From contig CAVYGN010000001.1 of assembly GCA_963768055.1 (NCBI GenBank), forward strand, positions 1,664,001 to 1,728,000: DNA of 64,000 nucleotides, given 5' to 3'. The position numbers and the translations under genes were made by a program. The notes under the pieces were generated by a model. It searched no databases and was not told the DNA's origin. It was given only the letters and a program-made list of their open reading frames with translations. Below, piece after piece: positions 14,189 through 31,246 of this stretch. Origin of the DNA: an uncultured Spirochaetota bacterium (GTDB lineage: Bacteria > Spirochaetota > Brevinematia > Brevinematales > JAOACQ01). Each line of letters opens with the position of its first letter. Position 1 is the first letter of the stretch.

Positions 14189-14317
14189 GGGCGGTTCTAA
14201 AAACTAACATTGTTATTAAAAAAAGATGGTCTTACAGTAATAAAACCGCCCAATGGGCCCTACCTTGCTGCCCAAAAGGGCTTGTCCCCGTAAGGGGGGC
14301 AGTTATTAGAAGGGCCC
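14189..14317. mobile_element. Putative MITE (129 bp)
   Basis: Imperfect 17-bp terminal inverted repeats (GGGCGGTTCTAAAAACT / AGTTATTAGAAGGGCCC) with TTAA on both flanks; no transposase. Confidence 0.5.
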
Positions 14318-14370
14318 TTAATATTAATAATAAAGCGGTAAAAAGGCAATTTTGAATATCGAAACACCTG

Positions 14371-14535
14371 CTAACTTCTTTGCGTTCTTTGAGCCTCTGC
14401 TCTGATTAAATTATAAACCATTTTAAACCTCTCCAGAATGATCCTGTCAAGGGCCAAGGGCTCGCAATATTTAAGAACCTCTTTTCTAAGGGCTTGGTAC
14501 TCCTGTTCAAGCATCATCTCCTCTTTATCAGGCAT
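14371..14535 (-). CDS. Small hypothetical protein, 54 aa (MPDKEEMMLEQEYQALRKEVLKYCEPLALDRIILERFKMVYNLIRAEAQRTQRS)
   Basis: Perfect AAGGAGG RBS before the ATG; below the ORF-track cutoff. Confidence 0.5.
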   Translation of the reverse strand: MPDKEEMMLEQEYQALRKEVLKYCEPLALDRIILERFKMVYNLIRAEAQRTQRS

Positions 14536-14734
14536 ATGACCTCCTTGATTATTGATAGTCTAGAACATTTCGAGGCCCCCTTAACTCCTCCCCCGTTCTA
14601 TTATTAGTATCCGTTGTTAAAATATAATAAAGATGGAACCTTGAAAAATTAGTTGGAAACCGGATAATTTAAATGGAACTTGTTTTGCTTATTTATGTCA
14701 TACCATCAATGAAGTGTGTTTTAATATGTTTATA

Positions 14735-16786
14735 TTATTTACACATTGATATCAATTCTTTTAACTTTGATTCTATAAGTTTCCAGTCCTCATTATTGCT
14801 TTTATATGAAAACTCCATTATCTTTTTTTTAAAATCAAGTAATGAAATTCTTAATTTATATTCCTTATGAATATCAATTAATACTTGTTTTCCATCACAT
14901 TTAATTATCCATTTAGATTCCCAATCATCTTTAATAGAAGTTATACGTTTTTGGATTTCAGATAATACAACATCTTTTCTAAAATCTGTTTTTATTCTAA
15001 TAGAAGATGCTGCGATTTTATCTAGTATAGAAAATAAATTGTTTACAGTTTCTTCCGGATTATCAGTTAATATTTCTGTTATTTTTATATAAATTTCATC
15101 AGTTAAATATTTAAGTACAACATCTTTTGCTCCAATTTTGTTTATTTGCATAAATGCTATATTTTTTATTATTCCCAACATTGACCCTCTTGTCAATCCA
15201 TCCTGATTTGCTCCGTTTTCTTTGATAACATCAAATATTGTATCAGAATTAAGTAAATAATTTTCAAGGCAATATCTATCCCATTGAAGTAAGATAACAT
15301 TTTTAGTTGATTTCAAACTAGTTGGAAGATTATCAAGATCAAACAAGAATAACTGATATGAGTCAAGTGTACCTTTTTTATCTTCATCTTGAAGAGTTTT
15401 AATATTTTTTTCAATTTCTTTTCTTCCACCTAAATACTTTGCCGCATAACCAGGCATAATGGTAGTAATAGCAAAATCTAAAAGTTCTGTGTCATGAGGA
15501 CCTTCTAAGTAAATAATGCCTTTAGTCGATAATAAATCTGTACTACTTGAGCCTAATTTTTGTAGAACACTAAATACTTCAGCTTTATCCTTTTTATAAA
15601 TTACCGAAATATCATTTCCGGATATTAAATGATAGATTTTGCAATCATTTCTCTCAAAAGCAGTTGCAAACATTTCTGGGCTATGAGTACTAAGAATAAT
15701 TTGTCTATTTTTTACATTACAAACAGTATCAATGAGATAATTTATAATCTTCTTTTGGACTGCTGGATTTAAATGTAGTTCGGGTTCATCAAAAAGAATT
15801 ATTCCATTTTCATTAGTAGTAAGATCCATAAATAGTATAGTTAATAATAAATTTTTTTCGCCAGAACTCATACTATCTATATCGTAATGGCTTCCTTTTA
15901 TAGTATCATTTATCCATATTGAAATATTTCCATTTGGATTTATTCCAACTCCACCAAGATTTTTTCCAGGAAGTAATGAGTCAAATATTAATTCAAATGT
16001 TTCTTCTATCATTTTCTTAGATTCATTACTTGAAAAATACATGTTAATAATAAATTGTTTTATTAATAGGTATTTTGATTGTGGGTTTGCAATATACGAT
16101 TGAAGCTGCTGATTCGCATTTTGAAAACCGATTTGTAACGGTTGATCACCCAAAGGCAAAGATCTATCTGCTGGAAAATAATTAAAATAAGAATATGAAT
16201 ACCCACTTGTCTCACAAAGTATTGCAAGAAACTCTTGATCTAATAAAGAAGAACCAGATATAAGTAGATTATCTATAGTTAAACTTGCAATAGCCTTCTT
16301 TGTAGTCAATAGAGTTTTCAAATAAGAATCGATTTCCAAACGACCTAATTCCATCATCTGTTTTCCAGGTTCACTACTGAGATATTGAGCTTCAGAAAAT
16401 GATTCACGAAAAACAGGAAATCTATTTGTATTTTGCAAATGCTTAATAATCAGATTATTAAAGAAAGATTTTTTTACAGTTTCTATTTCTGATTCCTCAA
16501 TAGAATATTCAATTGATATCTCAAGCTTTTTGGTTCGATCATTTAACAAAGTGTTTGTAATAACACCTTGTTGATTTGGACTAATAGCTTTAATACTAGT
16601 TAAAACCATATTTGTTTCACCTTGTATGTTTGGAAATAAAAAAGCCTTATTTAAACGAATAGCCTCGAAAATGGTTGATTTACCAACAGCATTTGGACCT
16701 ACGATTAAAATTCCTTGAGCATCCGTGTTAAATTCAATATCTTTTATACCTTTAAGATTAATTATTCTAATTTTGGTAATTTTCAT
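14735..16786 (-). CDS. ABC-type ATPase plus TOPRIM-like domain (OLD-family-like ATP-dependent nuclease; candidate defence protein)
   Basis: Walker A GPNAVGKS, signature MSSGE, Walker B ILFDEPELHL, H-loop STHS, then TOPRIM-like YLEGPHD and FDLD. Confidence 0.75.
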   Translation of the reverse strand: MKITKIRIINLKGIKDIEFNTDAQGILIVGPNAVGKSTIFEAIRLNKAFLFPNIQGETNMVLTSIKAISPNQQGVITNTLLNDRTKKLEISIEYSIEESEIETVKKSFFNNLIIKHLQNTNRFPVFRESFSEAQYLSSEPGKQMMELGRLEIDSYLKTLLTTKKAIASLTIDNLLISGSSLLDQEFLAILCETSGYSYSYFNYFPADRSLPLGDQPLQIGFQNANQQLQSYIANPQSKYLLIKQFIINMYFSSNESKKMIEETFELIFDSLLPGKNLGGVGINPNGNISIWINDTIKGSHYDIDSMSSGEKNLLLTILFMDLTTNENGIILFDEPELHLNPAVQKKIINYLIDTVCNVKNRQIILSTHSPEMFATAFERNDCKIYHLISGNDISVIYKKDKAEVFSVLQKLGSSSTDLLSTKGIIYLEGPHDTELLDFAITTIMPGYAAKYLGGRKEIEKNIKTLQDEDKKGTLDSYQLFLFDLDNLPTSLKSTKNVILLQWDRYCLENYLLNSDTIFDVIKENGANQDGLTRGSMLGIIKNIAFMQINKIGAKDVVLKYLTDEIYIKITEILTDNPEETVNNLFSILDKIAASSIRIKTDFRKDVVLSEIQKRITSIKDDWESKWIIKCDGKQVLIDIHKEYKLRISLLDFKKKIMEFSYKSNNEDWKLIESKLKELISMCK

Positions 16787-16964
16787 TTTTTACCTCTCTT
16801 GAAATTCTTTATATTATATTTATTGAATTGTCTTAATTTTTTCAACATTATCTTCAGATCGATTTTAATAAATAACTCCAAAGTTTCTTCAGTTATTAAA
16901 GAATATAAATATTTGTTTTATATTTTCTTATTTTTACAAGCCAAACTTAGTTTAATTTTTCTAT

Positions 16965-17666
16965 TTATTGCAATAATATTTCAGATTGGCTATCATCTTT
17001 TATAATATATTTATTAACTAATTCAATAATGGATTTGCATTCTAAAAAAGGATATATTTTACGAATAGCTTCATCTAAAACTGTTAAATTATAATCTCCA
17101 CTCCAGCGTTCTGATTCAGAGATTGTAATATTATTCCCATGCTTTAAATATTTTTCAAGTAAATCCAGACCTAATTCTTTTTGTCCTTTTTCATCTCTAG
17201 CATGCCTTGCTTTTGCTACTGTAGACCATGGATCTCTGCCAGCTTTTTCACCTTTTCCATGTATTAATGATAAGATTCTAGCAACTTTATGAGCCTCATT
17301 TATTGAGTATATTGTACAAGGAACTTTTAAATTATCCCTTTTCCATTCATCTGAAATGGTTTTAATCTTTATTGAGATTTCTCTTGGGATTTCGATTTCA
17401 GTTAAAAATCCATGTAAGATTTTTAATGATGCTACTCTACGATTTCCCTCTTTTACAAGATGAATTCCTTTGTCAAACATAATAATGATATTTTCTGTAG
17501 GGAAATAACCATTATCTAATAGGCTTTCTAGCAATCCCCAAAAATAATCAGGACTTATAGCAATCATAGTATTAACAGCATCTATATCACTTTTTTTATG
17601 GATTGTTCTGAAATTATCAAGATCTAATGATAATTTATCAACAGAGATTTCCCCTAATGTTGGCAT
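16965..17666 (-). pseudogene. ParB/Srx-like N-terminal domain protein, probably 3'-truncated
   Basis: LSLDLDNFR...ENIII...VKEGNRRVASLK is a ParB-like motif set. The ORF ends in low-complexity AT-rich sequence. Confidence 0.5.
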
Positions 17667-17868
17667 GAATATATCCTAAAACAATGATCTTAAAAAGTTA
17701 TATTCTATTATATATCGCCAATAACCTATATGAATATAAATATATAACAACAATTTATTATTATTTTGTTGAATTGGAAGGTTGCAGTTCGGCAGGTTTA
17801 GTGACCCAAGGTCAGCATTTTTGAGGATACTTAAATTCTATAATTAATTATATTTTTCTCTTAAGAAT

Positions 17869-18352
17869 TCAGATTGTCTTTCAAGTTCTGGGAAAAATGC
17901 TCGTTCATTTATTCCTATTCTATTTAACTCATCAAGAATTTTTGCTTTTTAATAAATAAGAAACTTATTTTTATCTTCTTTTAACAAAATCCAATCTTGA
18001 TTAAGGATAGCCGGGTTATTTTTTTATAATTTATACCAAATAAAAAGAAGGCGCCTTCTTGTCTTAAAATTCGTTGATTATTCATTTTAAGACGTACACA
18101 TATAACTGAATTAATAGTTTTAGGATCTATTAAAGGTAAAAAGTATGGTTTTTCACTTTTAATTTCATGTAGAAGAGTTTGCATTTCAGGGGTTTCATTA
18201 TTGAAATTTTCAATTTCATCATTATTTAAAATTAGGGAATCCTTTAGTATATTAAAACTAAAAGGTCTTTTTGATATATTGGAAATAATTGAAACACTAT
18301 CACTTTCATAAAGTCGAATTTCCTTCTTAGGTATTCTAAAAAACTATTACTT
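17869..18352 (-). pseudogene. FRG-domain protein remnant (5'-truncated, frameshifted)
   Basis: Fragments EVIVFRIP..YESDSVS, LLHEIKSEKPYF and NQRILRQEGAFFLFG, plus KILDELNRIGINERAFFPELE in another frame. Confidence 0.7.
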
Positions 18353-18374
18353 CCACACATTAAGGATTATATTG

Positions 18375-18506
18375 ATGCCTAAAAAAGAGAAAAAGAAAAG
18401 AAAATCAAAATATGACAAACCCTTCTCACTTTATCCGTTGAATCCAGATCAGGCACTGGAAATATTTATGAGCATCCCGCTGGAAAAGGTCAAGGAAATT
18501 AAGTAG
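18375..18506 (+). CDS. 43-aa basic peptide (MPKKEKKKRKSKYDKPFSLYPLNPDQALEIFMSIPLEKVKEIK)
   Basis: Open frame with an SLxPL..AL motif that I recall from small ORFs downstream of IS1595-family transposases. Confidence 0.4.
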   Translation: MPKKEKKKRKSKYDKPFSLYPLNPDQALEIFMSIPLEKVKEIK

Positions 18507-18581
18507 AAATAGAAAATTGCTATTGACAATATTTTCCTCCACATTATACTTTTACCAAAATTCTTAAAGGAGGAATTGAAA

Positions 18582-18809
18582 ATGGCAGACTTTAAAGTCG
18601 GTGATGTTGTTAGATTAAAAAGTGGTGGACCTGATATGACCATCATTGAAATTTATGGAGATTCAAAAAACACCCCAAATGCTTATGTAGCCAGATTAAA
18701 ACATAGGATAGAAGGAGATTTGGTTTGTCGTTGGTTTGATTCAGGAAAGCAAACTGTTGATTTCTTTGGGCCAAACGAAGTGGTACTTATTCCTTCGGGG
18801 CAACAGTAA
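18582..18809 (+). CDS. YodC/DUF2158-family small protein
   Basis: FKVGDVVRLKSGGPDMTI...CRWF; AAGGAGG RBS. Confidence 0.8.
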   Translation: MADFKVGDVVRLKSGGPDMTIIEIYGDSKNTPNAYVARLKHRIEGDLVCRWFDSGKQTVDFFGPNEVVLIPSGQQ

Positions 18810-18969
18810 GAGGGCTAAATTCCATCATCGTAGCATAAATGATCTTCTGATTGTTGTATATTGCCCCACCAAGAACAGATGAGGGTTCCTCATCTTTTAC
18901 TTTTTCAACAATCAAATCAGGACTTCCTGATTTAAGTTTTACCTTATCCCCTTTTTTGTAGTTTTTCAT
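18787..18969 (-). CDS. Second YodC/DUF2158-like small protein, possibly degenerate
   Basis: YKKGDKVKLKSGSPDLIV; lacks the C-terminal CxWF. Confidence 0.5.
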   Translation of the reverse strand: MKNYKKGDKVKLKSGSPDLIVEKVKDEEPSSVLGGAIYNNQKIIYATMMEFSPLTVAPKE

Positions 18970-19227
18970 TGTAATTTTACCTTGCTTTCCTTTATACTAA
19001 ATATAAACGGGCAGACAAAATTTCAGAAGGAAAATTGTATGATACAACGTGAACTTAGGAGACTAATTAGAGAATCACGTCTTTCTCAAGAAAGAAAGGC
19101 TGTTTGGAGAAATATATTAAACCCACATTTCCCAGATGAAATTTTGTTTTCTTAGAGAAAACATGGCATAATCATATATCAGGATAGGAATTAGATTACT
19201 AAAAAACCTTCATAACTGGAGGATTCA

Positions 19228-20565
19228 ATGGGTGAAAGCCAAAATCAGGCATTACGAGTCGATTTTGATAAGAGTCTAAGGCTTGAATTTCATGGTTCAA
19301 CCATTACTTCTGATGCCGGACTACTTGCTTATCGTGAACTTGATGACGCATTGGGATTGACAGACATTGCGGCAAAGTGCCTGAAAGATATCAGATTTGG
19401 AAAGAACAAACAGCATAGTATTGCAGCACAATTGCGGCAATCCGTATTCAGCAGGCTTGCGGGATATGAAGACACAAATGATGCGGAACGTCTTTCCGTT
19501 GATCCTGCCATGAGGCAGGTTGTCGGGGGAAGAGCTCTTATTCATACGGCTGCGTCAACGAGCCAGATGGGAAGGTTTGAAACTGAAGTTCTAACTCTTC
19601 CGGATAACATCAAAGCCCTTATGAATCTTTCCGGGCAATGGATTGACAGGTTAAGGGATCAGGTTCCCATGAGAAATCTTGTTCTCGATATGGACAGCTC
19701 TGTGAGTGAAACATATGGAAGACAGGATGGGACTGCATATAATGGACACTTTGGATGTACTTGTTACCACCCCCTTTTTTGCTTCAACCAGTTTGGCGAT
19801 GTCGAGTTTGCCCTTCTTCGGGAAGGTAATGTACACAGCGCTGATAACTGGAAAAAAGTATTAGATCCAATTGTTGCCCGTTACCGTAATAGAAAATTTC
19901 CTCATTACTTCAGAGGGGATGCCGGCTTTGCCAAACCCGAGATTTACGAGTACCTGGAATCAGAACATTTCAAGTATGCCATTCGCTTACCAGCCAATGA
20001 TATTTTATACAGTGAAATCGGACATCTCCTTACAAGGCCGGTAGGACGGCCGTCATATACACCTGTTGTCTGGTACCATGAATTCCTGTATAAAGCGGCA
20101 TCCTGGGCTCGTGATCGCAGGATAATAGCAAAGGTGGAATGGCACCAGGGAGAACTCTTTCCCAGGGTCGGTTTTATCGTTACAAATCTAAGGGCTAAAA
20201 AGAAGAAAGTAGTCCATTTTTACAATATGAGGGGAACAGCGGAACAATGCATTAAAGAGGGTAAGAATGCTGTAAAGTGGACAAGGCTCTCCTGTCATGA
20301 TTTTATCGATAATCATGTCCGGCTCCAGTTATTTGTCCTTGCCTACAATCTTGGAAACTTCTTCCGGCATTCAGCTTTACCCAGAGTAATGAAACACTGG
20401 ACCATGACGACACTCAGGGAAAAGCTAATAAAAATCGGTGCAAAGGTTGTCAGCCATGCTCGCTATGTGGTTTTCCAGATGGCGGAAGTCGCCGTCCCGA
20501 AAGGGCTGTTTGCCGTTATCCTTGATAGATTACATAGATTAAGGCTACTGTTTGGCGTTGGTTAA
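19228..20565 (+). CDS. IS1380-family DDE transposase
   Basis: ITSDAGL, GYEDTND, LDMDSS, RGDAGF and [15 protein letters not shown] motifs. Confidence 0.95.
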
Positions 20566-20700
20566 TACTATTTATTTGATATCGGATTTTTCAAGGGGTT
20601 ACTGTCGCCTTTTTGTTTAAAGGTTAGCAGAACATCGCCTGAAATCTGATTTTATGTTATTATCGAATGAATTTTATATAAAGAAACCTGGATTTTAATG

Positions 20701-20729
20701 TTGACAAAGTTATTTTACGGAATCATAAT
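20701..20729 (+). promoter_or_regulatory. Outward-facing promoter in the IS1380 right end
   Basis: TTGACA, 17 bp, CATAAT, pointing out of the IS. Confidence 0.65.
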
Positions 20730-21171
20730 AAATCAATCCATTAAATGGGAGAGTTTGGGGTGTCATTTGGGAAATATCGGTTAAACAGTGGCAGAGATGA
20801 TCAAGATATCGATTTAAATGTATTAAGAGAAGCTTGCTTAAACAATAATCAATCAGAAACAACAAGAAGGGCTACCGATCAAGCTTTAAGTGATTATCAA
20901 ATAGAAAACATAATTCTATACAATTATCATATAGAAGAAAATACCAATTTAATCAGAGATATAGATTCTTTATTATCAATACCCCATGTATAGTATTTTT
21001 TTATATAAAAGCTTTTTTTTGCTTCGTCAAGTGCATAGTTCCGAATTTATATTGTCAAAATTCATTATTACTTTTTATTGGAGAATTTGTTAAGGAAGTA
21101 AACATTTTTATTGATTTTATAAATTTGCGTAATCCGGGGCACCAGACGAAACCTTCCATGTAATCCGTTTC

Positions 21172-21372
21172 AAATCTGCCACCTAATCCTGTTGAACCCT
21201 GCCGGGTATTCCGGGTGAAATTTCCCCTGGATGATTTGATTAGATATGATGGTTGGGGATTTTAGCTTGTAATTTAAGGGGATTCTATTTTGGAAACACC
21301 CAGGGGAATTCGCCATTCATTTAATTTTCTTTAATACGTTTTTCAAATTCTATCATAAATTTGACTATTGAA
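21172..21372. repeat. Diverged direct repeat, copy 1 (includes the 3' end of an XRE gene)
   Basis: Aligns by eye with 25281-25474. Minus strand encodes SIVKFMIEFEKRIKEN*. Confidence 0.8.
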
Positions 21373-21397
21373 TGACAGAATTTATTAATTAATTAAA

Positions 21398-22123
21398 TTA
21401 TTCACAAATAATATGTTGAGTTGGAATAGTCTGATATTCAATATCATAAATCCAAAAGTTTCCAACATTATTAAAGGGAAACCAACAATCACTCTTATTT
21501 GGTACCCTAAATTTTTCTAACCTGTATGTATCTTTATTCTGATTTGAGTATTCAACCTGACAAAATACTATCCCTATTCCTTTAGCTAATACTACTAATC
21601 TTTTTGTGTAACAGTAACCAGTATAATTTAAAGGAAACTCGAAGGAAGATTCAACGGCAATACAGTTAGATATTTTCCTCTTAATCTTATTTGGAATTTT
21701 ATCATACGGAACACTATTAAGCCTTTTGGTTTTTATTTTTGTCTTAAATCCATCACTTTCTTGATTTTCAATCCATTCAGAACTTTCATGAAGGATGTAT
21801 TTACCTGGTGAGATTATGACATGGGTAAATGAATTTATAAACGCGTACCTATTAACATAAATAATTTCAGAGTTGTTAGTTAGTAATAGATCCATAAAAC
21901 CCACTGCATTATCAAGACTGCTTTTGGTTAGAATTAAACGCATTGAATGAATAAATCCAGTCGACTCCTGATGAGATACTTTTTCTATTACCTGATAACA
22001 TTCTTTATGATGTCCACCTCCTTTTATACGATACTTTGAAGAAAAGTAAATGTTAAGATAATATCCGATAAACGCTAGAACAAGAGCTATTATTATTGAA
22101 ATTAAAGTCATTGATTGATCCAT
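21398..22123 (-). CDS. Membrane-anchored hypothetical protein, last gene of the rSAM cluster
   Basis: N-terminal TM helix; LAKGIGIV and WFPFNNVGNFWIY motifs; starts 35 bp after the rSAM stop. Confidence 0.65.
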   Translation of the reverse strand: MDQSMTLISIIIALVLAFIGYYLNIYFSSKYRIKGGGHHKECYQVIEKVSHQESTGFIHSMRLILTKSSLDNAVGFMDLLLTNNSEIIYVNRYAFINSFTHVIISPGKYILHESSEWIENQESDGFKTKIKTKRLNSVPYDKIPNKIKRKISNCIAVESSFEFPLNYTGYCYTKRLVVLAKGIGIVFCQVEYSNQNKDTYRLEKFRVPNKSDCWFPFNNVGNFWIYDIEYQTIPTQHIICE

Positions 22124-22158
22124 ATTTGAAATCCTTAAGTAAACGGAATCTTATTTTA

Positions 22159-23481
22159 TTAATTTATTTGTTTGCTCCAGCACATAACATCCTTTCTACG
22201 AATTCCATCATTGGTAAGATTGTAATTGCATCCACCACCACATTTATTTATAAACTTACATCCAATACAATCAAGTGGTGATTTTGATATTATTTCCTTA
22301 CCAAATTCTGCTGCTTTTTGCCATATTTTTTCAAGAGAGTCTTTTGGATATTTGCCAAGATGATAATTTCTCATATGTGGACATGGTGTAACAGTCCCAT
22401 CCGCACAAATATTAAGCACATCATTTCCAGCATTACAAGGACCAAGAACAGAATAGCTTTCATTAACTAAGTGCGGGTAAAAACATAAAGGTTCAAACCC
22501 GATAACAGTTTCACTATGTTTTTTTTCAAGCAAAACTAATTTTCTGGAAACTTTTTTTAACTCATTTATACTCAAGGAAAGCTTTTCTCCATTTGGTCCG
22601 GAAGGCATATAACGAAAAACCACAAATCTATCAGCTCCATTTTTAAATGCTAAATTCGCAGTTTTTTCTATCAGGTTCCAGTTTATAGATGATACTGTCA
22701 TTGCGACTCTAGTTTCGATACCAATTTTGGAAAATATTTTAAGCGCATTAATAGCCTTATTATAAACTCCATTACCACGAATATAATCATGAACAGTAGG
22801 CGGACCATCTAAACTTATCTGTGCAATACCCAAACCTGCATTTTTTAGTTTTATCGCATTTTTATTGGTTATAAAAACACCACTAGTACTAATAGCAGTT
22901 TTTATTTTTGTTGAAGCACAACGACTCAAATATTCCGGAAGATTTTTGTCAAGGGTCGGTTCGCCTCCTCCAAAACCAACAGTCATAACTCCAAGTTTTG
23001 TTAGTCCATCTATAAGTTGAAATACCCACTGACTCCTATCTTCAAAATTTTTCTCTTTCTTAATCTTTGCCCTTGTATAGCAGTGAATACATTGCAAGAT
23101 ACATTTATCTGTAATTTCAATAAAAGCGCTAAGTGGCGCTGAAAGCTTTGGGGTAAATTTTAAATTTACTTTTGTGAAATTATATCTATCGAATCTGGGG
23201 AAGGAATTATTATCAACAACCTTTAGTATTCCTATTTGAGATAATTCATTAATAAAGCTTTCGATCATATTTTTATCGATTCTCGGGTATTTTATTAGCA
23301 CCTTTTCGGTAAGATTTCTAACAGATATTGGAATTTTGCAATTCTCAAGAATTGTTGTTCCAACTCTATTAAGTTTAAAAAATTGGGGAACATCAGGTCG
23401 CTCAAGTTCAAAAGGTACTAAAATAATTGAGCCGAAAGTTTCATTCCTTAAATTAATTCCTTTATGTAAAAATACCTTCAT
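22159..23481 (-). CDS. PqqD/RRE-fused radical SAM/SPASM peptide maturase (MftB-MftC/PqqE-like architecture)
   Basis: N-terminal RRE-like segment (LRNETFGSII...FKLNRVGTTIL...FINELSQIGIL), CILQCIHC, GGGEP, and SPASM cysteines CNAG..TPCP..CIGCKFINKCGGGC..C. Confidence 0.9.
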   Translation of the reverse strand: MKVFLHKGINLRNETFGSIILVPFELERPDVPQFFKLNRVGTTILENCKIPISVRNLTEKVLIKYPRIDKNMIESFINELSQIGILKVVDNNSFPRFDRYNFTKVNLKFTPKLSAPLSAFIEITDKCILQCIHCYTRAKIKKEKNFEDRSQWVFQLIDGLTKLGVMTVGFGGGEPTLDKNLPEYLSRCASTKIKTAISTSGVFITNKNAIKLKNAGLGIAQISLDGPPTVHDYIRGNGVYNKAINALKIFSKIGIETRVAMTVSSINWNLIEKTANLAFKNGADRFVVFRYMPSGPNGEKLSLSINELKKVSRKLVLLEKKHSETVIGFEPLCFYPHLVNESYSVLGPCNAGNDVLNICADGTVTPCPHMRNYHLGKYPKDSLEKIWQKAAEFGKEIISKSPLDCIGCKFINKCGGGCNYNLTNDGIRRKDVMCWSKQIN

Positions 23482-23567
23482 GGGTTTCTTCTCAGTAAAA
23501 ACTTAACAATAGCATCGATGAAAGCTCCTGACTCACAATGGCTTGGATTAACCTCCGCAACAATCAT
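23478..23567 (-). CDS. Unannotated 29-aa ORF (MIVAEVNPSHCESGAFIDAIVKFLLRRNP)
   Basis: ATGA overlap with the precursor stop and again with the rSAM start; GGGAG RBS upstream. Confidence 0.5.
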   Translation of the reverse strand: MIVAEVNPSHCESGAFIDAIVKFLLRRNP

Positions 23568-23782
23568 AATAGCTCCCAAGGTTTCTTTACACCATAAGCT
23601 TTACATGGTCCACAAGACCAATCAGGGCGCTGTGAACACGAAATATGAAGTGGAACTATTTCAGGTATTTCCTCCAATAATAAATCACTTCTAACGAGAT
23701 GCTCATCCGCATCTTTTTGCAATTTGCTCTCATTTACAATGTCTTTAGGTAATTCACCTTGATATAAGTCTGTTTTTTCCAT
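23564..23782 (-). CDS. Putative RiPP precursor peptide (72 aa)
   Basis: GGAGG RBS; acidic leader containing DLLLEEI; C-terminal core SCSQRPDWSCGPCKAYGVKKPWELL; lies between two rSAM/SPASM genes. Confidence 0.8.
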   Translation of the reverse strand: MEKTDLYQGELPKDIVNESKLQKDADEHLVRSDLLLEEIPEIVPLHISCSQRPDWSCGPCKAYGVKKPWELL

Positions 23783-23796
23783 AAGTACCTCCAAAT

Positions 23797-25038
23797 TTAA
23801 TTTGCCATTTTATTATTTTTAGCCCATTTGCCACTATAGGGGTCATACAAGCATCTATTGTTTTTTTTATAAATGTTATTTATATTTTCTTCATAAGCCA
23901 ATGGTCTGCAATCTGTACAAATATACTTAAATTCACATTCTTTACATATTTGCACATCATCCAATGTCAGTGTCCAAGGCTGCGAAATTGCAACATCAAT
24001 AATATCTTCAAAATTATCAGTAATTATATCTCCCAATATCAAGTCTCGAGCATGAGGGCATGGGACAACTTTACCATCGAAACGTAAAAACAGCATGTTT
24101 CCCCAACATGAATTATATCGTTTAGAATATAGGAATGATTGTGGTGTCGATTCAAAAAAAGGAGCATTTCTTATATTATAATATTTTTTGCACTTTAAAT
24201 ATTTATTCCTTCCTCTACCAAAAGGCCTTACTGGGTCTGGCTCACCGAAATGTAAATTCATTTTTTTACAAAAGCTAATAATATCTTCATATTGATTTTC
24301 AGTTTCAGACATCAATATAATTGAGGCATTAACAGAAACACCAGCATCTTGAAGAAACTTTATATTCGAAATCATTCGCTTAAATGAACCTTGTGAATTT
24401 GTTAATCGATCATGTGTTTTGGCATCAGCTGCAAGTATTGTAGTGCTTACAATAATATCATATTGGGCTATTCTCTTTAAAAGGTTTCTATTATCCGTAG
24501 AAAGATTAGAAAATATCTCAATTTCTTTTACTTTATTCTTTATTGAAAAATCAATAAAATGAAGAAGGTCTTTCCTTAAAAGAGGTTCCCCTCCAGTAAA
24601 TTGTATTGATTCACATCCAAGTATAAAAACATTTTGAAGAAAATTTTGGATTTTGTCTGTCTCTAAACCTTTTGACGCCTTGGGTGATGCTGTAGCGTAG
24701 CAATGGACACATCTTTGGTTACACTTATTTGTCAATTCAACCCATATTTTTTTAAATGGTTTTTTAGGTAGAGGACCCATAGAAATTGTTTCATTATTTA
24801 ATGAACCATCATCTTTTAAAAATTGATATTTAATGAGTTCATTAAAAATGCTGCGAGGAAGAATCTTACTTAAATTTTCAACCGGCTTTTTGATTATATT
24901 TTTTATAATTTGAGTAGCAGCTTCGTTTACATGATAAGCTTTAGCAAGTTTAAGATCATAAATTAATGAGCATTTTGCCCCAAAAACTGTTTGGAAACGA
25001 TCATGTGAAGAGAACGGTGTTTGAAGTTGGAATTTCAT
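23797..25038 (-). CDS. Radical SAM/SPASM protein
   Basis: CNQRCVHC, FTGGEPLL and SPASM NSCW..VPCP..CKECEFKYICTDC..RCLYDPYSGKW; short RRE-like N-terminus (GAKCSLIYDL). Confidence 0.92.
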   Translation of the reverse strand: MKFQLQTPFSSHDRFQTVFGAKCSLIYDLKLAKAYHVNEAATQIIKNIIKKPVENLSKILPRSIFNELIKYQFLKDDGSLNNETISMGPLPKKPFKKIWVELTNKCNQRCVHCYATASPKASKGLETDKIQNFLQNVFILGCESIQFTGGEPLLRKDLLHFIDFSIKNKVKEIEIFSNLSTDNRNLLKRIAQYDIIVSTTILAADAKTHDRLTNSQGSFKRMISNIKFLQDAGVSVNASIILMSETENQYEDIISFCKKMNLHFGEPDPVRPFGRGRNKYLKCKKYYNIRNAPFFESTPQSFLYSKRYNSCWGNMLFLRFDGKVVPCPHARDLILGDIITDNFEDIIDVAISQPWTLTLDDVQICKECEFKYICTDCRPLAYEENINNIYKKNNRCLYDPYSGKWAKNNKMAN

Positions 25039-25280
25039 AACCTTCCCTTTTGAGCAAACAATAAATTATACGAAACTAAATATTTAGAAACATACTATTG
25101 TTATTGTATTACAAATCCATTCAATATTTAGTTTTGCTCATTGAATAATTGATAATTCGAGCATATTTTTTAATGTATTTTGTTAACCTCTAAATAATTA
25201 TTTTTGATAATTAATCATATCTCTTAAAATAGTCAAAGTCAAGCATTATCATTGGATATTATCATTGGAAAATCCGGGTG

Positions 25281-25474
25281 AAATATGCCACCCAATCCGG
25301 CGGAAACCTGCCGGTAAGTTTAACCTTCCCCTGGATGATTATATCGGTGATGGTAGGGGGATTTTAGCTTGTAATTCATGGAAATTCTATTTTGGAAACA
25401 CCAAGGGGAATTTTTTATTCATTCAATTTTCATTAATTCGCTTCTCAAATTCTATCATAAATTCGACAGTTGAA
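25281..25474. repeat. Diverged direct repeat, copy 2
   Basis: Shares TTCCCCTGGATGATT, GGGATTTTAGCTTGTAATT, ATTCTATTTTGGAAACACC and TCAAATTCTATCATAAATT with copy 1. Confidence 0.8.
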
Positions 25475-25671
25475 ATTTTAAGGGCCTCACACATATTAAT
25501 AAATTCAAGAAAGTCTACCCTGCGCTCACATTTTTCAAATTTGCTTATAACCGCCTGTTTTGTGCCTATCATTTCAGCAAGGCCGGCTTGTGTTACATCC
25601 TGCTTTCGTCTATATTCCCTGAGCAGGGATATAAATATTTTGTATTTCTTATTGAAAAGACTCTTTTCCAT
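25423..25671 (-). CDS. XRE-family HTH regulator
   Basis: LREYRRKQDVTQAGLAEMIGTKQAVISKFEKCERRVD. Confidence 0.85.
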   Translation of the reverse strand: MEKSLFNKKYKIFISLLREYRRKQDVTQAGLAEMIGTKQAVISKFEKCERRVDFLEFINMCEALKISTVEFMIEFEKRINEN

Positions 25672-25805
25672 TAACTCTTATCCAAATAAAATCAGTATAA
25701 TATTTGTTGTAATATAATCCTAATAGGATTATAATATTACTATTATGAATAAAATATATTGATTTAAGTAATCAATTGATTTCAATATCTAGGAGGATTT
25801 ATTAT

Positions 25806-26717
25806 ATGAAAAAACTGTTGATTTTGATTATGCTTACAATCCCTGTATTTGTTTTTGCCGACCGCTTGGGTGATGCTGCTGTAGATGACGACTTGAAATT
25901 TATTACGAATTATCAAGGTGATGTTAACAAGTTAGATTGGCATGGTATGACAGCTTTAATGTGGGCGGCGCATTATGGTCATCCTGATGCGATGGAATCT
26001 TTGATAGAGAAAGGGGCAACTGTCACCAATATTGATAATTCCGGCTGGACAGCAATGATGTATGCACTTGATTTTGGCAACATGGAATCTGTAAAGGTAT
26101 TAGAAAAAGCAAAGATCGATATAGATACAAAAGATAAAGATCACGGCAAGACCATATTAATGTATGCTGCTGAACACGGGAATGTAGAATTAGTGGACCT
26201 TTTAATTAAAAATAATGCTGATATTAATGCCGTTGATAATGTGGGTGATACAGTATTAATGTACGCGGCCCGAGGAGGGAGTGCAGTTAAGCTCATAATT
26301 AAGGCGGGTGCTGATGATGTAAATTTTTTTAACAAAAAAACTGGTAAGACAGCATTGATTTATGCTGCTCAATATGGGCAAGCGGAAGCTATTAAGAATT
26401 TAATTGAAGCAAAGGCCGATGTTGATATGGGATATGGTGGCTGGACACCTTTATTTTTTGCAGTTTTTAGTTCAAAAATAGATGCAGTGAAAGCTTTAAT
26501 TGCATTAAAGGCTGATGTAAATCTTGTAGATAATCATGGAAGGACACCTTTAATGTTAGCAGTCGAAGAAAACCAAACTGAAATTACTAAAGCGTTAATT
26601 CAAGCAAAGGCTGATGTAAATGCGACTGATAGTGAAGGCAAGACGGCCTTGTCTATTGCTTATAAGTCAGAAAATGCTGAAATAATCAACCTTTTAAAGA
26701 AAGCTGGGGCGAAATAG
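25806..26717 (+). CDS. Secreted ankyrin-repeat protein
   Basis: Signal peptide followed by about 8 G-x-T-A/P-L-M ankyrin repeats. Confidence 0.92.
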   Translation: MKKLLILIMLTIPVFVFADRLGDAAVDDDLKFITNYQGDVNKLDWHGMTALMWAAHYGHPDAMESLIEKGATVTNIDNSGWTAMMYALDFGNMESVKVLEKAKIDIDTKDKDHGKTILMYAAEHGNVELVDLLIKNNADINAVDNVGDTVLMYAARGGSAVKLIIKAGADDVNFFNKKTGKTALIYAAQYGQAEAIKNLIEAKADVDMGYGGWTPLFFAVFSSKIDAVKALIALKADVNLVDNHGRTPLMLAVEENQTEITKALIQAKADVNATDSEGKTALSIAYKSENAEIINLLKKAGAK

Positions 26718-26793
26718 AGACTGAATCAAAAAGGAGTATCAAACTCTTATATTGAAAATAATGACATTGGGAAGTTTGTTCGATGGAGGTATT

Positions 26794-27208
26794 TATGATA
26801 AAAAAGTTATTTACCCCATCCGATATAGAACGCATAACAGGTGCATATCGCCATGAACCTGTAAAATTACCATTTTATTATGCGCCCCCATTTTTAGATC
26901 AACTCAGGGCATTGATTCAAAAGAGACTTTCATCTCTTGGTAGAAAGACTTCTAAATAGGCTGATCCCAGAATGAAAAGAAGATGAAAAGGATTTTATAA
27001 ATACGAAATTTTTCATCCTTTAAACCGTCTTTTAAAATTAATAAAAATTGCAAAATTAACACTCGACGAAAATGTTGTCAAAGAATGGCTTCAGACAACA
27101 AATCAATACCTTAACAATGTGGCTCCGATTTCTTCCCTGCGTTCAGATGAGGAAATGGAAAAAGTAATTTCTTTATTAGGTACTATAGGGCATGGGTTGC
27201 CCTCTTGA
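26794..27208 (+). pseudogene. Xre/MbcA/ParS-type antitoxin remnant
   Basis: Start-less frame 26987-27208 encodes VKEWLQTTNQYLNNVAPISSL...VISLLGTIGHGLPS. The upstream part is in another frame. No RES toxin follows. Confidence 0.55.
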
Positions 27209-27519
27209 ATTAGAGTTACTGATTATACAGAAGGGGATATGGTTTTTATTTTACTTCTACCAGAATTAATTGTTTATATCATGACTGTAATATTATTGGC
27301 AATGTTTATTTATATATATTATGCATTTTATATAAAGGCAAGATTTAGAAGAAAAAAATGATCCTATCGATTCTTGCATGAGGCGATGGACCCAGCCCAG
27401 CTAGTCCTATCTCATATGTAATGTAAAAAAATGAATATTTCAAAAAGCTATTGACACATTCACAAACCGTGATAAAATTAACTCAGAATAGGGAAAAAGT
27501 TTTTCTTGGGAGGCTTTCT

Positions 27520-27687
27520 ATGGCAACAGCAGAAGTAAAAAAGTTGCAACCCGCTGATTATCTTGAAGTTGTTGAAAGAAGAGCTAACGAACTTTTTCTG
27601 GAACGACTTGATAAAGCAGCCGAAGGAAACTACTCATCCGACTGGTCTCAGGCGGAAAAAGAAATCAAATCAAAATACCATCTGTAA
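27520..27687 (+). CDS. DUF2934-like small protein
   Basis: RRANELFLER...G...DWSQAEKEI pattern; GGGAGG RBS; TTGACA..TAAAAT promoter at 27451-27478. Confidence 0.65.
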   Translation: MATAEVKKLQPADYLEVVERRANELFLERLDKAAEGNYSSDWSQAEKEIKSKYHL

Positions 27688-27792
27688 AAATCCCATAATT
27701 TATGCACTCTTTGATTTTTAAAAAGAAACCTAATATTAATTTTCCCTGATATCGTCTGTAAAGATAAAAATAATAATGCTAATAATAAATTA

Positions 27793-28812
27793 TTAGGGTC
27801 GGACAACCCGGAATCCTCCTGTGATACCTTGTAACGGATCGCAAAAACGATAGTTAATCGAAATGTTTGTCGTACTCCAATCACCACCCCTAAGTATGTG
27901 TCTCGCTTTTGGAAAATGCTTATCCCCGTAATCTTCTCTAAAGTTTGTTATAGCACCCACTTGATCCTGCTGATAGCCCCAGCACCATTGCCATTCATTT
28001 CCGCTCATGTCAAACAATCCTATTTCATTGGGTAATTTTGTCCCGGCAGGATGTGTAGTACCGCCGCTATTTATAGCGTTCCATTCATAGTCTTCAATAT
28101 TATTTGTTCCTGCGCTTCCCGCAAACACCTTTAAGTATCCGTTGGTATTTACCCTTCCCGGATTTGACGAATCGGCTCCCATAGCTGCCCACATCCATTC
28201 CATTTCTGTTGGCAGCCGATAGCCGTTAGCGGACCAGTTGGCTGTTACAGCATCCCAGGCACCGATTTTTTCCCGTACTTCTTCCGGTACTATAGAATCT
28301 CCAATCTGGTATATCGCCGAGTCATACTCAGGCGGTGTTCCCCAAGCAGAACAATCTGTATTACTTTTAATGGAATATACCGGAATCAGTCCCTCAAGCA
28401 AACTCAGCTTATTGCAAAACAAAATTGCCTGATACCAGTTTACATACTGTACTGGATCAGAGATCCCTGAAGAATGATTTGAAACCGACGGATTTAAGAA
28501 AATTGGATCAAACCCTGTTACATTAGAAAATTGAGCCCTGGTAATGTCATTTTCACTGATATGGAAAGGTGAAGTAATGGTAGCAGTGTCAGTATTTGTA
28601 CCGTCAGACTGAAATGTTCCGGCAGGAACATACTTTAAAATGCCGATGTTTTTTGAAATATAATTGGTATTTCCAATAGTTATAACCTCACTTGAAGAAG
28701 TACTGGAACTGGTTGAAGAATTGAGTTTCCCTGATGATTTTGAACAATTATTAATGATTAGGACAATAATTGCCGTAATAGCAAAAATAAATAGGGATTT
28801 CTCATTTAGCAT
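27793..28812 (-). CDS. FGE-sulfatase (SUMF1)-domain putative lipoprotein
   Basis: Hydrophobic signal ending in NNC, Ser-rich linker, then YRLPTEMEW, NEIGLFDMSGN, RGGDW and GFRVVR. Confidence 0.88.
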   Translation of the reverse strand: MLNEKSLFIFAITAIIVLIINNCSKSSGKLNSSTSSSTSSSEVITIGNTNYISKNIGILKYVPAGTFQSDGTNTDTATITSPFHISENDITRAQFSNVTGFDPIFLNPSVSNHSSGISDPVQYVNWYQAILFCNKLSLLEGLIPVYSIKSNTDCSAWGTPPEYDSAIYQIGDSIVPEEVREKIGAWDAVTANWSANGYRLPTEMEWMWAAMGADSSNPGRVNTNGYLKVFAGSAGTNNIEDYEWNAINSGGTTHPAGTKLPNEIGLFDMSGNEWQWCWGYQQDQVGAITNFREDYGDKHFPKARHILRGGDWSTTNISINYRFCDPLQGITGGFRVVRP

Positions 28813-28968
28813 ATTGAAACTCCAAAAATCCGAATCCCAATGCATTCTACTAAATTTTCAGATCCTTTGCCCTCATTAGCGTTTATCTGCGTTCATCGGT
28901 AGTGTCAAAAATCTTTCATACTTTCCTCAATCTGACCCTGGATCCTGATACCAAATCTATGACCCGCT

Positions 28969-30327
28969 TTAAGTCCTGAACTTACGTCTTATAGCAAAAC
29001 CAGCTAATACAAAAAGAGTTGCAAGGACTATATTTTCCAGTCTGGCAAGTATCAATGTGAATATTCCCCAAAAAGCGGCAGCGTTTATTTCGACTGTTTT
29101 TTGCTGTATGAATAATACATTGTATAAAAAATAAGGGGTAAGCAACTGGTTATTTTTATCATTTGAACCATTCTGTATTACAATTCCAGGCATCCATATG
29201 CATGCCATTATTACATATATTTCCATAATAATCATTATAAGGAATACCCAACCTAGTGGCTTTATCCAGCTCATTCCGAAATCAGAGGCCAACTTATACA
29301 ATCTTTCCCAGCTTATTATTTTAGATATTCCTTTCTTTTGCTGAAGTTTCATTCGGAATTCACCATATAGAAAGTCATCGGATAGAGAATAATTCATGTT
29401 ATTTAAAAACTTACATTTAAGCTGTCGGTAAAGTATTTCAATATGCTTTATCTTATTATCTTTATCTTTTTCATCCTTTATATTAAATTCATCAAATACA
29501 GCATTCCTTCCTTTAAAATCAACCCATTTTACGTTTTGGAAATCAAAACAGTCTATATTCGAATACAAAAAAGAACAATTACCAACAAATGTATCCTGGA
29601 ATATTATTTTTGCGTTAAAAGAGGGCTTCTGAATATAAATAAAGTCAGTTCCACCCGAAAATTTGGTGAAGTAAAAATAAGTTTCGCTGGAAAATTCTGC
29701 TCTGGTAAAGTCAACTCCACTGGAAAACTCGGTTCTGCTAAAGTCAGCTCCATCAGAGAATTTGGCTCTAGTAAAGTCAATTCCACCCAAGAATTTGGCT
29801 TCGTGAAAATCAGCCTCATTGGAGAATTTGGCTTCGTGAAAATCAACCCAACCAGAGAATTTGGCTCTGGTAAAGATAATCTTACTCGAAAATTTGGCTT
29901 CATGAAAGTCAGCTTCACAAGAAAATTGGGCGCTTGTAAAGTCAGTCTCACCGGAAAATTGGGCTTTGTCAAAGTCAGCATTACCGAGAAATTGGGACCC
30001 GATAAAGTAAGCCTCACTTAAAAACCTACATTTATAATAAATATTTTCTTTAATTTGATAGAAATATAGATCTCCTCTGAAAACACAGTTTTTAAAAGAT
30101 ATTTTATTTTTTATTATTATATTAATATCTTTATCGTTTACAATTTCAATCAATTTATCACAAACTGTTATATCAAGATCTCCAATTATTTCCACATTTT
30201 CATATGCAACATCAATTCCTTCATTAATTTTGTTAATTATTTTCTGTACATCAATTTTTTTCTTTTCTTTTCTTGGAATATCTGGTTTTTCATCCATTCT
30301 TTTCTCCAAAGGGATGTCGTTTGACAT
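28969..30327 (-). CDS. Pentapeptide-repeat protein with C-terminal TM helices
   Basis: 11-aa AxFSxxxDFxx repeats; DFGMSWIKP followed by hydrophobic segments. Confidence 0.85.
   Translation of the reverse strand: MSNDIPLEKRMDEKPDIPRKEKKKIDVQKIINKINEGIDVAYENVEIIGDLDITVCDKLIEIVNDKDINIIIKNKISFKNCVFRGDLYFYQIKENIYYKCRFLSEAYFIGSQFLGNADFDKAQFSGETDFTSAQFSCEADFHEAKFSSKIIFTRAKFSGWVDFHEAKFSNEADFHEAKFLGGIDFTRAKFSDGADFSRTEFSSGVDFTRAEFSSETYFYFTKFSGGTDFIYIQKPSFNAKIIFQDTFVGNCSFLYSNIDCFDFQNVKWVDFKGRNAVFDEFNIKDEKDKDNKIKHIEILYRQLKCKFLNNMNYSLSDDFLYGEFRMKLQQKKGISKIISWERLYKLASDFGMSWIKPLGWVFLIMIIMEIYVIMACIWMPGIVIQNGSNDKNNQLLTPYFLYNVLFIQQKTVEINAAAFWGIFTLILARLENIVLATLFVLAGFAIRRKFRT
29639..30012. repeat. Coding tandem repeat with 33-bp period
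   Basis: Recurring AATTTGGCT...AAAGTCA units encoding the 11-aa repeat. Confidence 0.8.
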
Positions 30328-30462
30328 TCTCCAGCAATCGATTTCTTCACTAATTTAATTTTAATTTATTGTAGGATGAAATACAAGAATTATATCATTT
30401 ACATTTTGTTATAAATAAAGTAAAATCATGAGAAATTATTAATTAATCAAAAAGGAGCCCTT

Positions 30463-31044
30463 ATGCCTATCAACCTGCCAAACTATGCGGATGATGAAGA
30501 AGAAAGAAACCTTGAGGCAAAATATAAAGCTTTAAAAAAGATTCTACTTAAAAACTATGACCCCTCTTCGCTTGAAAAGTTGATTATGAAAAAAGTAATA
30601 CCTGTTTTTAAGGCTGTTGTCAAGGAAAATGCTTCGAAAATGGGTAAACCTGTTTTAGCTATTGCAAAGTTTAATTTCAGCACTTTTACTGTTTCAAAGG
30701 CTGTTTATGACAGGTACTACGAGATTAATGATAAATATTCTGAAAAATATTTTGCTGGTAAAGCACGTTATTTCAATGAATTTATCATTAAGAGCGGCTG
30801 TGAAAACCTGTTTAAATTAAAGGGAAAAGTCATCGGAAAGCCAATCAAAAACAAGATTCATCTCAAGCTGTGGTTTTATGATTTCATAAGCGACAGGCTA
30901 AAAGAGGTGCGTGATAAGGTTGTTTCAGGAAATATTTTTCAGACGGCCAGGATAAACGAGAAAAAAATAATGTGTAATGATTTATTAATAAATACCGGTC
31001 TTGATTGTGTTCTTGGATTAGGGAAAAAAAGAAAATTTGAGTAA
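30463..31044 (+). CDS. Hypothetical basic protein
   Basis: 193-aa ORF with an AAGGAG RBS; no motif recognised. Confidence 0.6.
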   Translation: MPINLPNYADDEEERNLEAKYKALKKILLKNYDPSSLEKLIMKKVIPVFKAVVKENASKMGKPVLAIAKFNFSTFTVSKAVYDRYYEINDKYSEKYFAGKARYFNEFIIKSGCENLFKLKGKVIGKPIKNKIHLKLWFYDFISDRLKEVRDKVVSGNIFQTARINEKKIMCNDLLINTGLDCVLGLGKKRKFE

Positions 31045-31246
31045 GAGACAATAAAAAATTTGGTTTGACACGATGTTTTGGTCATTGTATAATTGTTATT
31101 GGAATGAAGGAGTTTCAAAAGTGGCAAAATTTATGGGCCATTGGGGAAATCTCGATTAAGAAGTGAAAAAGAAATGAGTTAGAAAGACCCATGCAAATAT
31201 TTTATTCACCTTATATAATTTTGTTAATTGTTGCATAGAGGTTTAT

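Follow-up and report, generated by a model that had tools for sequence, protein, structure and literature searches.

Radical S-adenosylmethionine (SAM) enzymes that carry a SPASM domain mature peptides that are ribosomally synthesized and then post-translationally modified (RiPPs), and the radical SAM/SPASM RiPPs are a main source of new peptide cross-link chemistry, some of them being new antibiotics and cofactors. The locus compared here with the described systems—two radical SAM/SPASM enzymes, A and B, on either side of a gene for a small peptide—lies in an uncultured Spirochaetota bacterium (contig CAVYGN010000001.1), within a 64,000-nucleotide stretch of DNA referred to below as the window. 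Among solved structures, SuiB (streptide), CteB (thermocellin), and SkfB share one domain order, namely an N-terminal winged-helix RiPP recognition element (RRE), a radical SAM barrel, and a SPASM/twitch domain. Where a SPASM domain has seven cysteines, as in CteB, an iron site may stay open to a substrate thiol, and radical SAM chemistry includes thioethers from Cys to Asp or Glu. Radical SAM enzymes also link Cys sulfur to Asn, Ser, or Gly, Trp to Lys, and, at WPR motifs, Trp-C5 to Arg-Cγ (PMC11851443). Sactipeptide systems with two radical SAM enzymes exist as well, examples being thuricin CD (TrnC/TrnD; PMC12093266) and ruminococcin C (RumC; RumMC1/MC2; PMC8188230).

The best explanation as a whole, to which a probability of about 0.7 is assigned, is that enzyme A, the peptide, and enzyme B form a horizontally moving RiPP cassette in which both enzymes would cross-link an invariant core of the peptide. 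That a dual-maturase RiPP cassette acts on the window peptide at all is judged distinctly probable. The features concerned are collected in Table 1.

Table 1. Features of the locus and its surroundings; positions count from the first nucleotide of the window.
Feature	Position	Strand	Description	Evidence
Enzyme A	23797–25038	minus	413-aa radical SAM/SPASM protein	Pfam, TIGR04193 match, alignments, AlphaFold2 (AF2)
Precursor peptide gene	23564–23782	minus	72 aa from ATG	nine relatives
PEIVPL	23648–23665	minus	peptide residues 40–45, proposed RRE recognition element	conservation and complex model
Invariant core, SCSQRPDWSCGPC	23603–23641	minus	peptide residues 48–60	identity across nine relatives
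Enzyme B	22159–23481	minus	440-aa RRE-fused radical SAM/SPASM protein	Pfam, alignments, AF2, Foldseek
Small ORF between peptide gene and enzyme B	23478–23579	minus	33 aa, 29 aa from ATG; judged not to be a gene	
241-aa ORF	21398–22123	minus	N-terminal hydrophobic segment; local passenger outside the conserved unit	
118-nt direct repeat, upstream copy	25357–25474		overlaps 3′ end of XRE gene (25423–25671)	
118-nt direct repeat, downstream copy	21255–21372		holds remnant of XRE 3′ end	

All five minus-strand open reading frames (ORFs) that the original prediction had placed at 21398–25038 are present. As a cluster, they hold in part: enzyme A, the peptide, and enzyme B are conserved together, whereas in the second readable locus, L001, the 29-aa ORF meets a stop codon and the gene for the transmembrane-anchored protein is missing. 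L001 is a 4108-bp contig of a metagenome-assembled genome (MAG) labelled Gammaproteobacteria, and it holds enzyme A (413 aa), a 73-aa peptide, and enzyme B (437 aa) in the same order as the window. The two loci are 85.6% identical in nucleotides over 2931 columns (blastn), the homology covering window positions 25070–22149 only, that is, from 32 nt ahead of the enzyme A start to 10 nt beyond the enzyme B stop. Since the homology spans just these three genes, the shared unit is the A-peptide-B trio. All three members were also linked on metagenomic contigs of 8191 and 3821 bp, and two of them at a time on three others, A with the peptide on 2184 bp, the peptide with B on 5500 bp, and A with B on 40088 bp, in each case through equal contig sizes. 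On these comparisons, the recurrence of A-peptide-B exceeds chance, and the trio is regarded as a self-contained three-gene RiPP cassette of ~2.9 kb.

Both enzymes are recognized by the general models for their domains. Radical_SAM (PF04055, cut-off 29.5 bits) matched enzyme A at 77 and enzyme B at 72.4 bits, SPASM (PF13186, cut-off 21.5) at 25.1 and 29.9 bits, and the generic SPASM model TIGR04085 (cut-off 27) at 32.1 and 44.7 bits, respectively. The radical SAM cysteines are invariant in the alignments (C106/C110/C113 of A, in the motif CNQRCVHC; C127/C131/C134 of B, as CxxxCxxC), and so are all seven SPASM cysteines of A (C311, C327, C365, C368, C374, C377, and C396; 48 sequences) and of B (C349, C367, C405, C408, C414, C418, and C434; 50 sequences). 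The close family of B has two further invariant cysteines of its own, C333 and C359. The two enzymes are 24% identical to each other over 337 columns, consistent with the prediction of a RiPP-type cluster with two different radical SAM/SPASM enzymes around one conserved Cys/Trp peptide. The solved structures nearest to them by sequence are SkfB, SuiB, and PqqE (E 1e-12 to 1e-15). By Foldseek, the nearest folds are SkfB, SuiB, and CteB for enzyme A (TM 0.51–0.57) and SuiB for enzyme B (TM 0.66–0.69), with SkfB also matched; the domain order of A and B, with N-termini predicted to be RRE-like, is that of these maturases, whereas the identity in the structural alignments is just 12–20%.

In a scan against NCBIfam 20.0 at E 0.01, enzyme A matched 76 families and enzyme B 75, and no curated equivalog cut-off was reached among the best 25 of either enzyme. 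The best match of enzyme A was AhbD (93.7 bits, cut-off 500). That of enzyme B was GeoRSP (TIGR04303; 129.9 bits, cut-off 400), residues 113–423 aligning to profile positions 1–314, or nearly the whole catalytic region, and the SPASM piece also matching GeoRSP_SPASM at 38.4 bits. Enzyme B is nevertheless far below the GeoRSP cut-off, and the best E-value on this model for the B family and a wider set is 2.9e-51. Enzyme B had been likened to an MftB-MftC fusion, which the scores do not uphold: MftC (TIGR03962, cut-off 265) ranked second at 112.7 bits, with enzyme A at 62.1. The values for A and B were 65.5 and 66.7 bits for AlbA (NF012164, cut-off 850), 64.9 and 81 for SkfB (TIGR04403, cut-off 300), and 83.8 and 72.2 for StsB (NF045574, cut-off 625), while PapB (NF047865, cut-off 340) matched B at 68.3 and was outside the best 25 for A; the KxxxW maturase model (TIGR04080, cut-off 500) and PqqE matched B at 61.8 and 90.4 bits. 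Mycofactocin, GeoRSP, grasp-with-spasm, AlbA, SkfB, StsB, PapB, and KxxxW families thus all fail on score. By sequence, both enzymes are members of the radical SAM/SPASM RiPP-maturase superfamily, and none of the named families tested fits.

The comparison with the grasp-with-spasm family (TIGR04193) is of a different kind, being confined to one end of enzyme A. The last 134 residues (280–413), with the tail RCLYDPYSGKW, score 77.9 bits on this model and 32.1 on the generic SPASM model; the earlier remark that the CxYDPYxGxW tail is grasp-with-spasm-like is therefore borne out, yet the cut-off of 175 is missed (74.5 for the whole protein), and the match covers only profile positions 223–338 of 342. 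The likeness lies in the last ~115 residues, including C-L-Y-D-P-Y-x-G-x-W, and in the C-terminal third of the model. The difference is that in enzyme A the radical SAM domain, with its CxxxCxxC, is intact, as the prediction had pointed out, and that no ATP-grasp domain was found among the 16 neighboring ORFs. The wider family of enzyme A (48 sequences, 27–36% identity) has the same character: C396, Y398, and P400 do not vary and G403 and W405 hardly at all, TIGR04193 is matched by 44 of the 48 members, and no member reaches a named equivalog as judged by best E-values. As far as these alignments go, the C-terminus of enzyme A is specifically grasp-with-spasm-like.

Close relatives of either enzyme are few. 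Homologues of enzyme A at E ≤ 0.001 number 123 proteins among 4089 candidates, five of them at 55–81% identity (P0121 and P0123–P0126), with two fragments (P0122 and P0127), followed by proteins at ≤36%. For enzyme B, 127 proteins were found among 5572 candidates, five being close (P0002–P0006, 50–84%) and the next at ≤39%. The nearest B relatives outside the close family—P0007, P0008, and P0010, at 34–39% identity and 327–338 aa—are without an N-terminal RRE, and they may go with the distant peptides P0249 and P0250, in which IKALDMS replaces IVPLHVS, and with an RRE that is a protein of its own. In P0011 and P0012, which are 29% identical to enzyme B over the full length, C-x5-C-x2-C (CNIATCIHC) replaces CxxxCxxC.

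The N-termini of both enzymes appear to be of the peptide-recognition type. Residues 1–110 of enzyme B gave a weak PqqD match (20.8 bits, E 5e-4; gathering score 23.4), and its AF2 model, with a predicted local distance difference test (pLDDT) value of 90.1, has the fuller winged-helix arrangement, strands then helices, at residues 2–90. In the model of enzyme A (pLDDT 89.0), residues 10–70 form four strands and three helices, and the A-type N-termini in the 48-sequence alignment matched the enzyme B N-terminus by hhalign with a probability of 89.5% (E 2e-6). Enzyme A is thus predicted to carry a reduced RRE-like N-terminus at approximately residues 10–70. The PqqD-like RRE that had been assigned to enzyme B is probable, whereas B as the sole RRE-bearing enzyme is not supported, the predicted N-termini of both enzymes being RRE-like.

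The peptide has the features listed in the original prediction, namely SDLLLEEI, the core SCSQRPDWSCGPCKAYGVKKPWELL, the C-x7-C-x2-C spacing, two Trp, and one Tyr. It ends in KKPWELL, within a variable tail, and lacks the IDGxCGVY end of MftA, as had also been noted. With a TTG at 23794 as its start, the ORF would span 76 aa, and GGAGG lies at 23788–23792, 5 nt ahead of the ATG and right after the enzyme A stop codon; the ATG at 23782 is most likely the start. No Pfam match and no NCBIfam family at E 0.01 was obtained for the peptide. A word-based search gave three relatives, and a profile search of 1.84 billion representatives gave eight proteins at E ≤ 0.001, comprising the window peptide, six further peptides, and a spurious one (P0251, 871 aa), rejected as a repetitive unrelated protein. 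The alignment holds 10 sequences, the window peptide and nine relatives.

Sixteen columns of this alignment are invariant: M1, P40, I42, L45, S48–W55, and C57–C60. The core consensus is SCSQRPDWxCGPC, in which position 56 alone varies (S, N, or T), and residues 48–60 are identical to the window peptide at 12–13 of 13 positions in each relative. The corresponding ranges are 4–10 of 11 for the recognition region (residues 37–47), 1–23 of 36 for the leader (1–36), and 0–11 of 12 for the tail (61–72). Between the window and L001, synonymous codon changes occur inside the invariant core. The conservation does not extend to SDLLLEEI, on which the idea of a mycofactocin-like leader had been based; this motif is not conserved among the 10 peptides, and the mycofactocin analogy lacks support, whereas P40, I42, and L45 of PEIVPL are invariant in all 10; PEIVPL, just ahead of the core, is proposed as the recognition element on the basis of this pattern and the complex model below. 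Tyr63 and Trp69, earlier regarded as likely key sites, are missing from the more distant relatives, and modification at either is unlikely to be essential. Lys does not occur in the invariant core, position 61 varying as K, R, or S, so that Lys-Trp chemistry of the streptide type is not directly transferable. The string W-x-C-G-P-C-K resembles the WCGPC motif of thioredoxin, a resemblance only.

The core strings were not found in the literature searched, the supplementary tables of genome-mining papers lying outside that search, and the same literature held nothing linking radical SAM/SPASM RiPPs with CGPC or radical SAM RiPPs with Cys-Trp; the papers on grasp-with-spasm and GeoRSP, judged by title, held nothing on RiPP chemistry. 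Together with the missed cut-offs and the unmatched peptide, this agrees with the view taken from the outset that the cluster is apparently undescribed: the dual-radical-SAM RiPP family is real and, apparently, new to the literature.

The pairing of the peptide with enzyme B was modeled from a 50-row alignment of the enzyme and a 10-row alignment of the peptide, in three runs and with three controls. The interface score ipSAE was 0.81, 0.78, and 0.81, and 0.00 for the best control; of 157 solved complexes, 116 reach the mark applied to this score, as do 2 of 215 mismatched pairs. Agreement between the runs is at least 44% of contacts, with a partner pLDDT of at least 41, and the confident interface comprises peptide residues 37–52. 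Residues 40–45 (PEIVPL) pair with residues 34–41 of enzyme B at the lowest expected errors (0.7–1.0 Å) and also touch helices at ~61–80; in the AF2 model of the enzyme alone, 34–37 is a strand and a helix runs from 39. Residues 46–52 contact residues 102–107, 117–118, 289, 329–333, 346–350, 354, and 368–369, near the SPASM cysteines. The predicted position of PEIVPL on the RRE strand, as with the leader strand on RRE beta-3 in the SuiB/CteB/SkfB group, supports binding, although what the model shows is likeness rather than binding.

With respect to distribution, only the window's own genome, of 43 in the class, was matched by the enzyme B profile, and the same genome alone, of 401 sampled from the phylum, by the peptide profile. 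A scan of species-representative genomes gave 60 pattern matches with one true enzyme B relative, namely L001. The single-genome occurrence within the class and phylum, together with the 85.6% nucleotide match to a contig labelled Gammaproteobacteria, suggests horizontal transfer, and the sequences point to an A-peptide-B trio that moves horizontally. Other apparent occurrences were rejected. The wider-family profile of enzyme A matched 12 of the 401 phylum genomes at E 1e-45, the 11 non-self matches scoring ≤176 bits vs 500 for self, with the tail motif in 0 of 11 loci. In the metagenome scan for this family, the patterns were too generic: the 80 kept loci are all distant (20–43% identity over partial stretches), with the tail motif in 0 of 80. 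Among viral contigs, 33 pattern matches included no relatives, and the three plasmid records were all at ≤28.1% identity. Three DNA sequencing runs of one study contained 0.11–0.27 of the locus words.

In the proposed mechanism, the precursor would be captured via PEIVPL, which in the model forms an added strand along beta-3 at the edge of enzyme B's winged-helix RRE, and PEIVPL would probably be bound likewise by the reduced RRE-like domain of enzyme A. The adjoining SCSQRPDWxCGPC would be threaded into the radical SAM/SPASM barrels, where each enzyme, via 5′-deoxyadenosyl radical chemistry, would install intramolecular cross-links in the 13-residue core. The candidate residues—three Cys, Asp54, Trp55, Arg52, and Gln51—are all invariant. 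At least one bond would most likely be a Cys-derived thioether of the sacti-/ranthipeptide type, for which Asp54 is an attractive acceptor, and a second would be a cross-link at Trp55, e.g., to Arg52 or Gln51. We infer both the action of the two enzymes on the peptide and the identity of the bonds; the odds of at least one thioether in the product are put at even, and a Trp cross-link is given less than even odds. Enzyme A may be the likelier thioether synthase, a weak hint drawn from its wider family conserving only the seven SPASM cysteines where the close family of enzyme B has two extra. The StrB/WgkB/NxxcB/GggB/WprB group provides precedents for linking residue types found invariant in the core (PMC11851443). 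WgkB is a mid-rank match of both enzymes (74.6 and 70.9 bits), short of its cut-off of 650, and the WPR motif differs from the R-P-D-W of the window core in its opposite order and different spacing.

Several points weigh against this account. It is built on sequence comparison and predicted models, from which thioether and C-C chemistry would be indistinguishable, and the NCBIfam rankings of both enzymes mix heme, cofactor, and peptide enzymes. The first 95 residues of enzyme A gave no PqqD match, and the complex model, which covers enzyme B and the peptide alone, does not bear on a pairing of the peptide with enzyme A. The success of that model may partly be memory, since it resembles solved RRE-leader complexes such as SuiB-SuiA; its partner pLDDT is low (41–47), and its alignments were self-supplied. 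The linkages on the five metagenomic contigs named above are indirect, by size matching only, and no RNA sequencing run was listed with the locus words. In addition, the conserved unit is without a protease or exporter, so that release of a mature product is unexplained.

The last point, taken with the invariant core, makes a cofactor-like or intracellular role conceivable, and the alternative that fares best builds on it. By analogy with PQQ and mycofactocin, the product would be an intracellular RiPP-derived redox cofactor or redox-active mini-peptide, with either a quinone-like group derived from Cys and Trp or a W-x-CGPC dithiol loop, constrained and thioredoxin-like, as candidates. The core has stayed invariant while the enzymes diverged to 50–60% identity and leader and tail drifted, which is the pattern of PqqA and MftA and unlike that of most antimicrobial RiPPs; however, darobactin-like antibiotics also have near-invariant cores. 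The conserved unit has no exporter, immunity gene, or protease, the best named matches of enzyme B include the C-C-forming MftC and PqqE at the scores given above, and CGPC is the thioredoxin active-site motif. The likeness to mycofactocin, in particular, extends to a small peptide with an invariant core on its C-terminal side and a radical SAM/SPASM enzyme needing a PqqD-type RRE, whereas the window cassette has a second radical SAM enzyme, its peptide has no MftA-model match, and no further mycofactocin-type genes were recognized among the 16 neighboring ORFs. Every cofactor-family cut-off was missed, and cofactors normally co-occur with the enzymes that use them, yet the cassette is mobile and occurs sporadically, in one of the 43 genomes of the class, in one of the 401 of the phylum, and at one locus in the species-representative scan, with no conserved partner oxidoreductase traveling along. 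This alternative is accordingly held to be unlikely. Its most explicit form, in which the two enzymes convert SCSQRPDWxCGPC into a conserved redox-active entity, whether a Cys/Trp cofactor-like group or a covalently stapled W-x-CGPC dithiol loop, is a long shot; if true, the mobile cassette of three genes would carry a new redox molecule derived from a RiPP, PQQ- and mycofactocin-like in kind and unrelated to both.

Less likely still, both enzymes would be thioether synthases sharing the three invariant cysteines, making the product a two-maturase sacti- or ranthipeptide with no Trp chemistry. Thuricin CD and ruminococcin C, the precedents introduced above, share with the locus two radical SAM/SPASM enzymes per RiPP cluster and Cys-containing precursors. 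The locus differs in having one precursor, two very unlike enzymes, an invariant rather than variable core, and no transporter or immunity gene recognized nearby. The paired enzymes of the two precedents are paralogues, whereas enzymes A and B, at 24% identity, belong to different sub-families. Enzyme A matches StsB, AlbA, and SkfB, and enzyme B matches SkfB, StsB, PapB, and AlbA, all far under cut-offs of 300–850. The seven SPASM cysteines kept in the wider family of A would suit an open iron site, while the invariance of Trp55, Arg52, Gln51, and Asp54 suggests constraint beyond the Cys positions.

That the peptide is no substrate at all, being instead a Cys-rich accessory that binds metal or Fe-S without being modified, or an ORF without function, with the enzymes acting on another molecule, is very improbable: direct evidence of modification is indeed absent, and the top NCBIfam matches of both enzymes include AhbD, NirJ, and MoaA (heme and cofactor enzymes), but the peptide lies between both enzymes in two readable loci, with a strong GGAGG and synonymous changes in an invariant core, both enzymes bear N-terminal domains that look to be of the peptide-recognition type, the predicted peptide-B complex passes with controls at 0.00, and the nearest structures are peptide maturases.

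The dual-maturase RiPP cassette, which remains the preferred explanation, has three unusual traits: two very unlike maturases paired with one peptide, a 13-residue core that is invariant across hosts despite a drifting leader and tail, and an enzyme A in which a SPASM domain of the sort otherwise characteristic of grasp-with-spasm proteins is joined to a radical SAM domain that is intact. If the two enzymes install different bonds, a new RiPP class would be defined, and two unnamed enzyme families would gain a function. Pending proof of its chemistry, the cassette counts as a good candidate rather than a surprise, since many uncharacterized radical SAM RiPP families exist; being minimal, with three genes in 2.9 kb, it is directly testable by co-expression.

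The two remaining ORFs of the original cluster were not retained as members. In L001, the frame of the 29/33-aa ORF stops after 9 codons, and the spacer is more diverged than the flanking coding DNA; a structured RNA or an attenuator in this spacer, which separates the peptide gene from enzyme B, was rejected too, the fold not being unusual (z −0.54). The 241-aa gene is missing downstream of the trio in L001, where homology ends at window position 22149. It was also not found in the MAG carrying L001 with the window query, which is weak evidence because that MAG is incomplete. The 241-aa protein has a single hydrophobic segment (residues 5–23, Kyte-Doolittle mean 2.4), and an Atlas search gave a best score of 0.80, a lead only. 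Neither this protein nor the small ORF has a family match in NCBIfam or Pfam.

Upstream of the trio, L001 (positions 1–1084) contains the 3′ end of a gene and, besides it, an unrelated ORF of 132 aa. Since homology begins just 32 nt before the enzyme A start, the context of the trio differs there, and no promoter region is shared. In the window, promoter counts were not above those of shuffled sequences (32 vs 28.0 ± 5.1), nor were terminator counts (2 vs 2.6 ± 1.7), so that TTGACT-17-TATGAT at 25242–25214 is merely a candidate promoter.

The direct repeat in Table 1, 118 nt at 86% identity with a spacing of 4102, extends to ~149 nt at 83% and occurs in two copies only in the whole genome. As its copies flank the cluster, the trio and the 241-aa gene occupy a 4.1-kb repeat-bounded segment; there is no integrase between the copies, and the downstream copy retains a remnant of the XRE reading frame. 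The segment lies in a low-GC (guanine plus cytosine) stretch that runs from ~14 to 32 kb of the window (14200–32700), with a GC fraction of 0.28–0.37 vs 0.41–0.49 in the 12 kb on either side, bordered by an isocitrate dehydrogenase gene and the histidinol dehydrogenase gene (hisD). Among the 16 neighboring ORFs, five of which have no Pfam match, no protease or exporter was recognized, as the prediction had stated. The low-GC island also contains a DDE_Tnp_1_4 transposase gene (19228–20565), a DUF2158 gene, the XRE regulator gene, and genes for an ankyrin-repeat protein (25776–26717), an FGE-sulfatase-domain protein (27793–28845), and a pentapeptide-repeat membrane protein (28969–30327). The same island (14735–16786, minus strand) encodes an AAA_15/AAA_21 ATPase of 683 aa that ends in a DUF4435 domain, an architecture that is common in ATPase-nuclease proteins of anti-phage defence.

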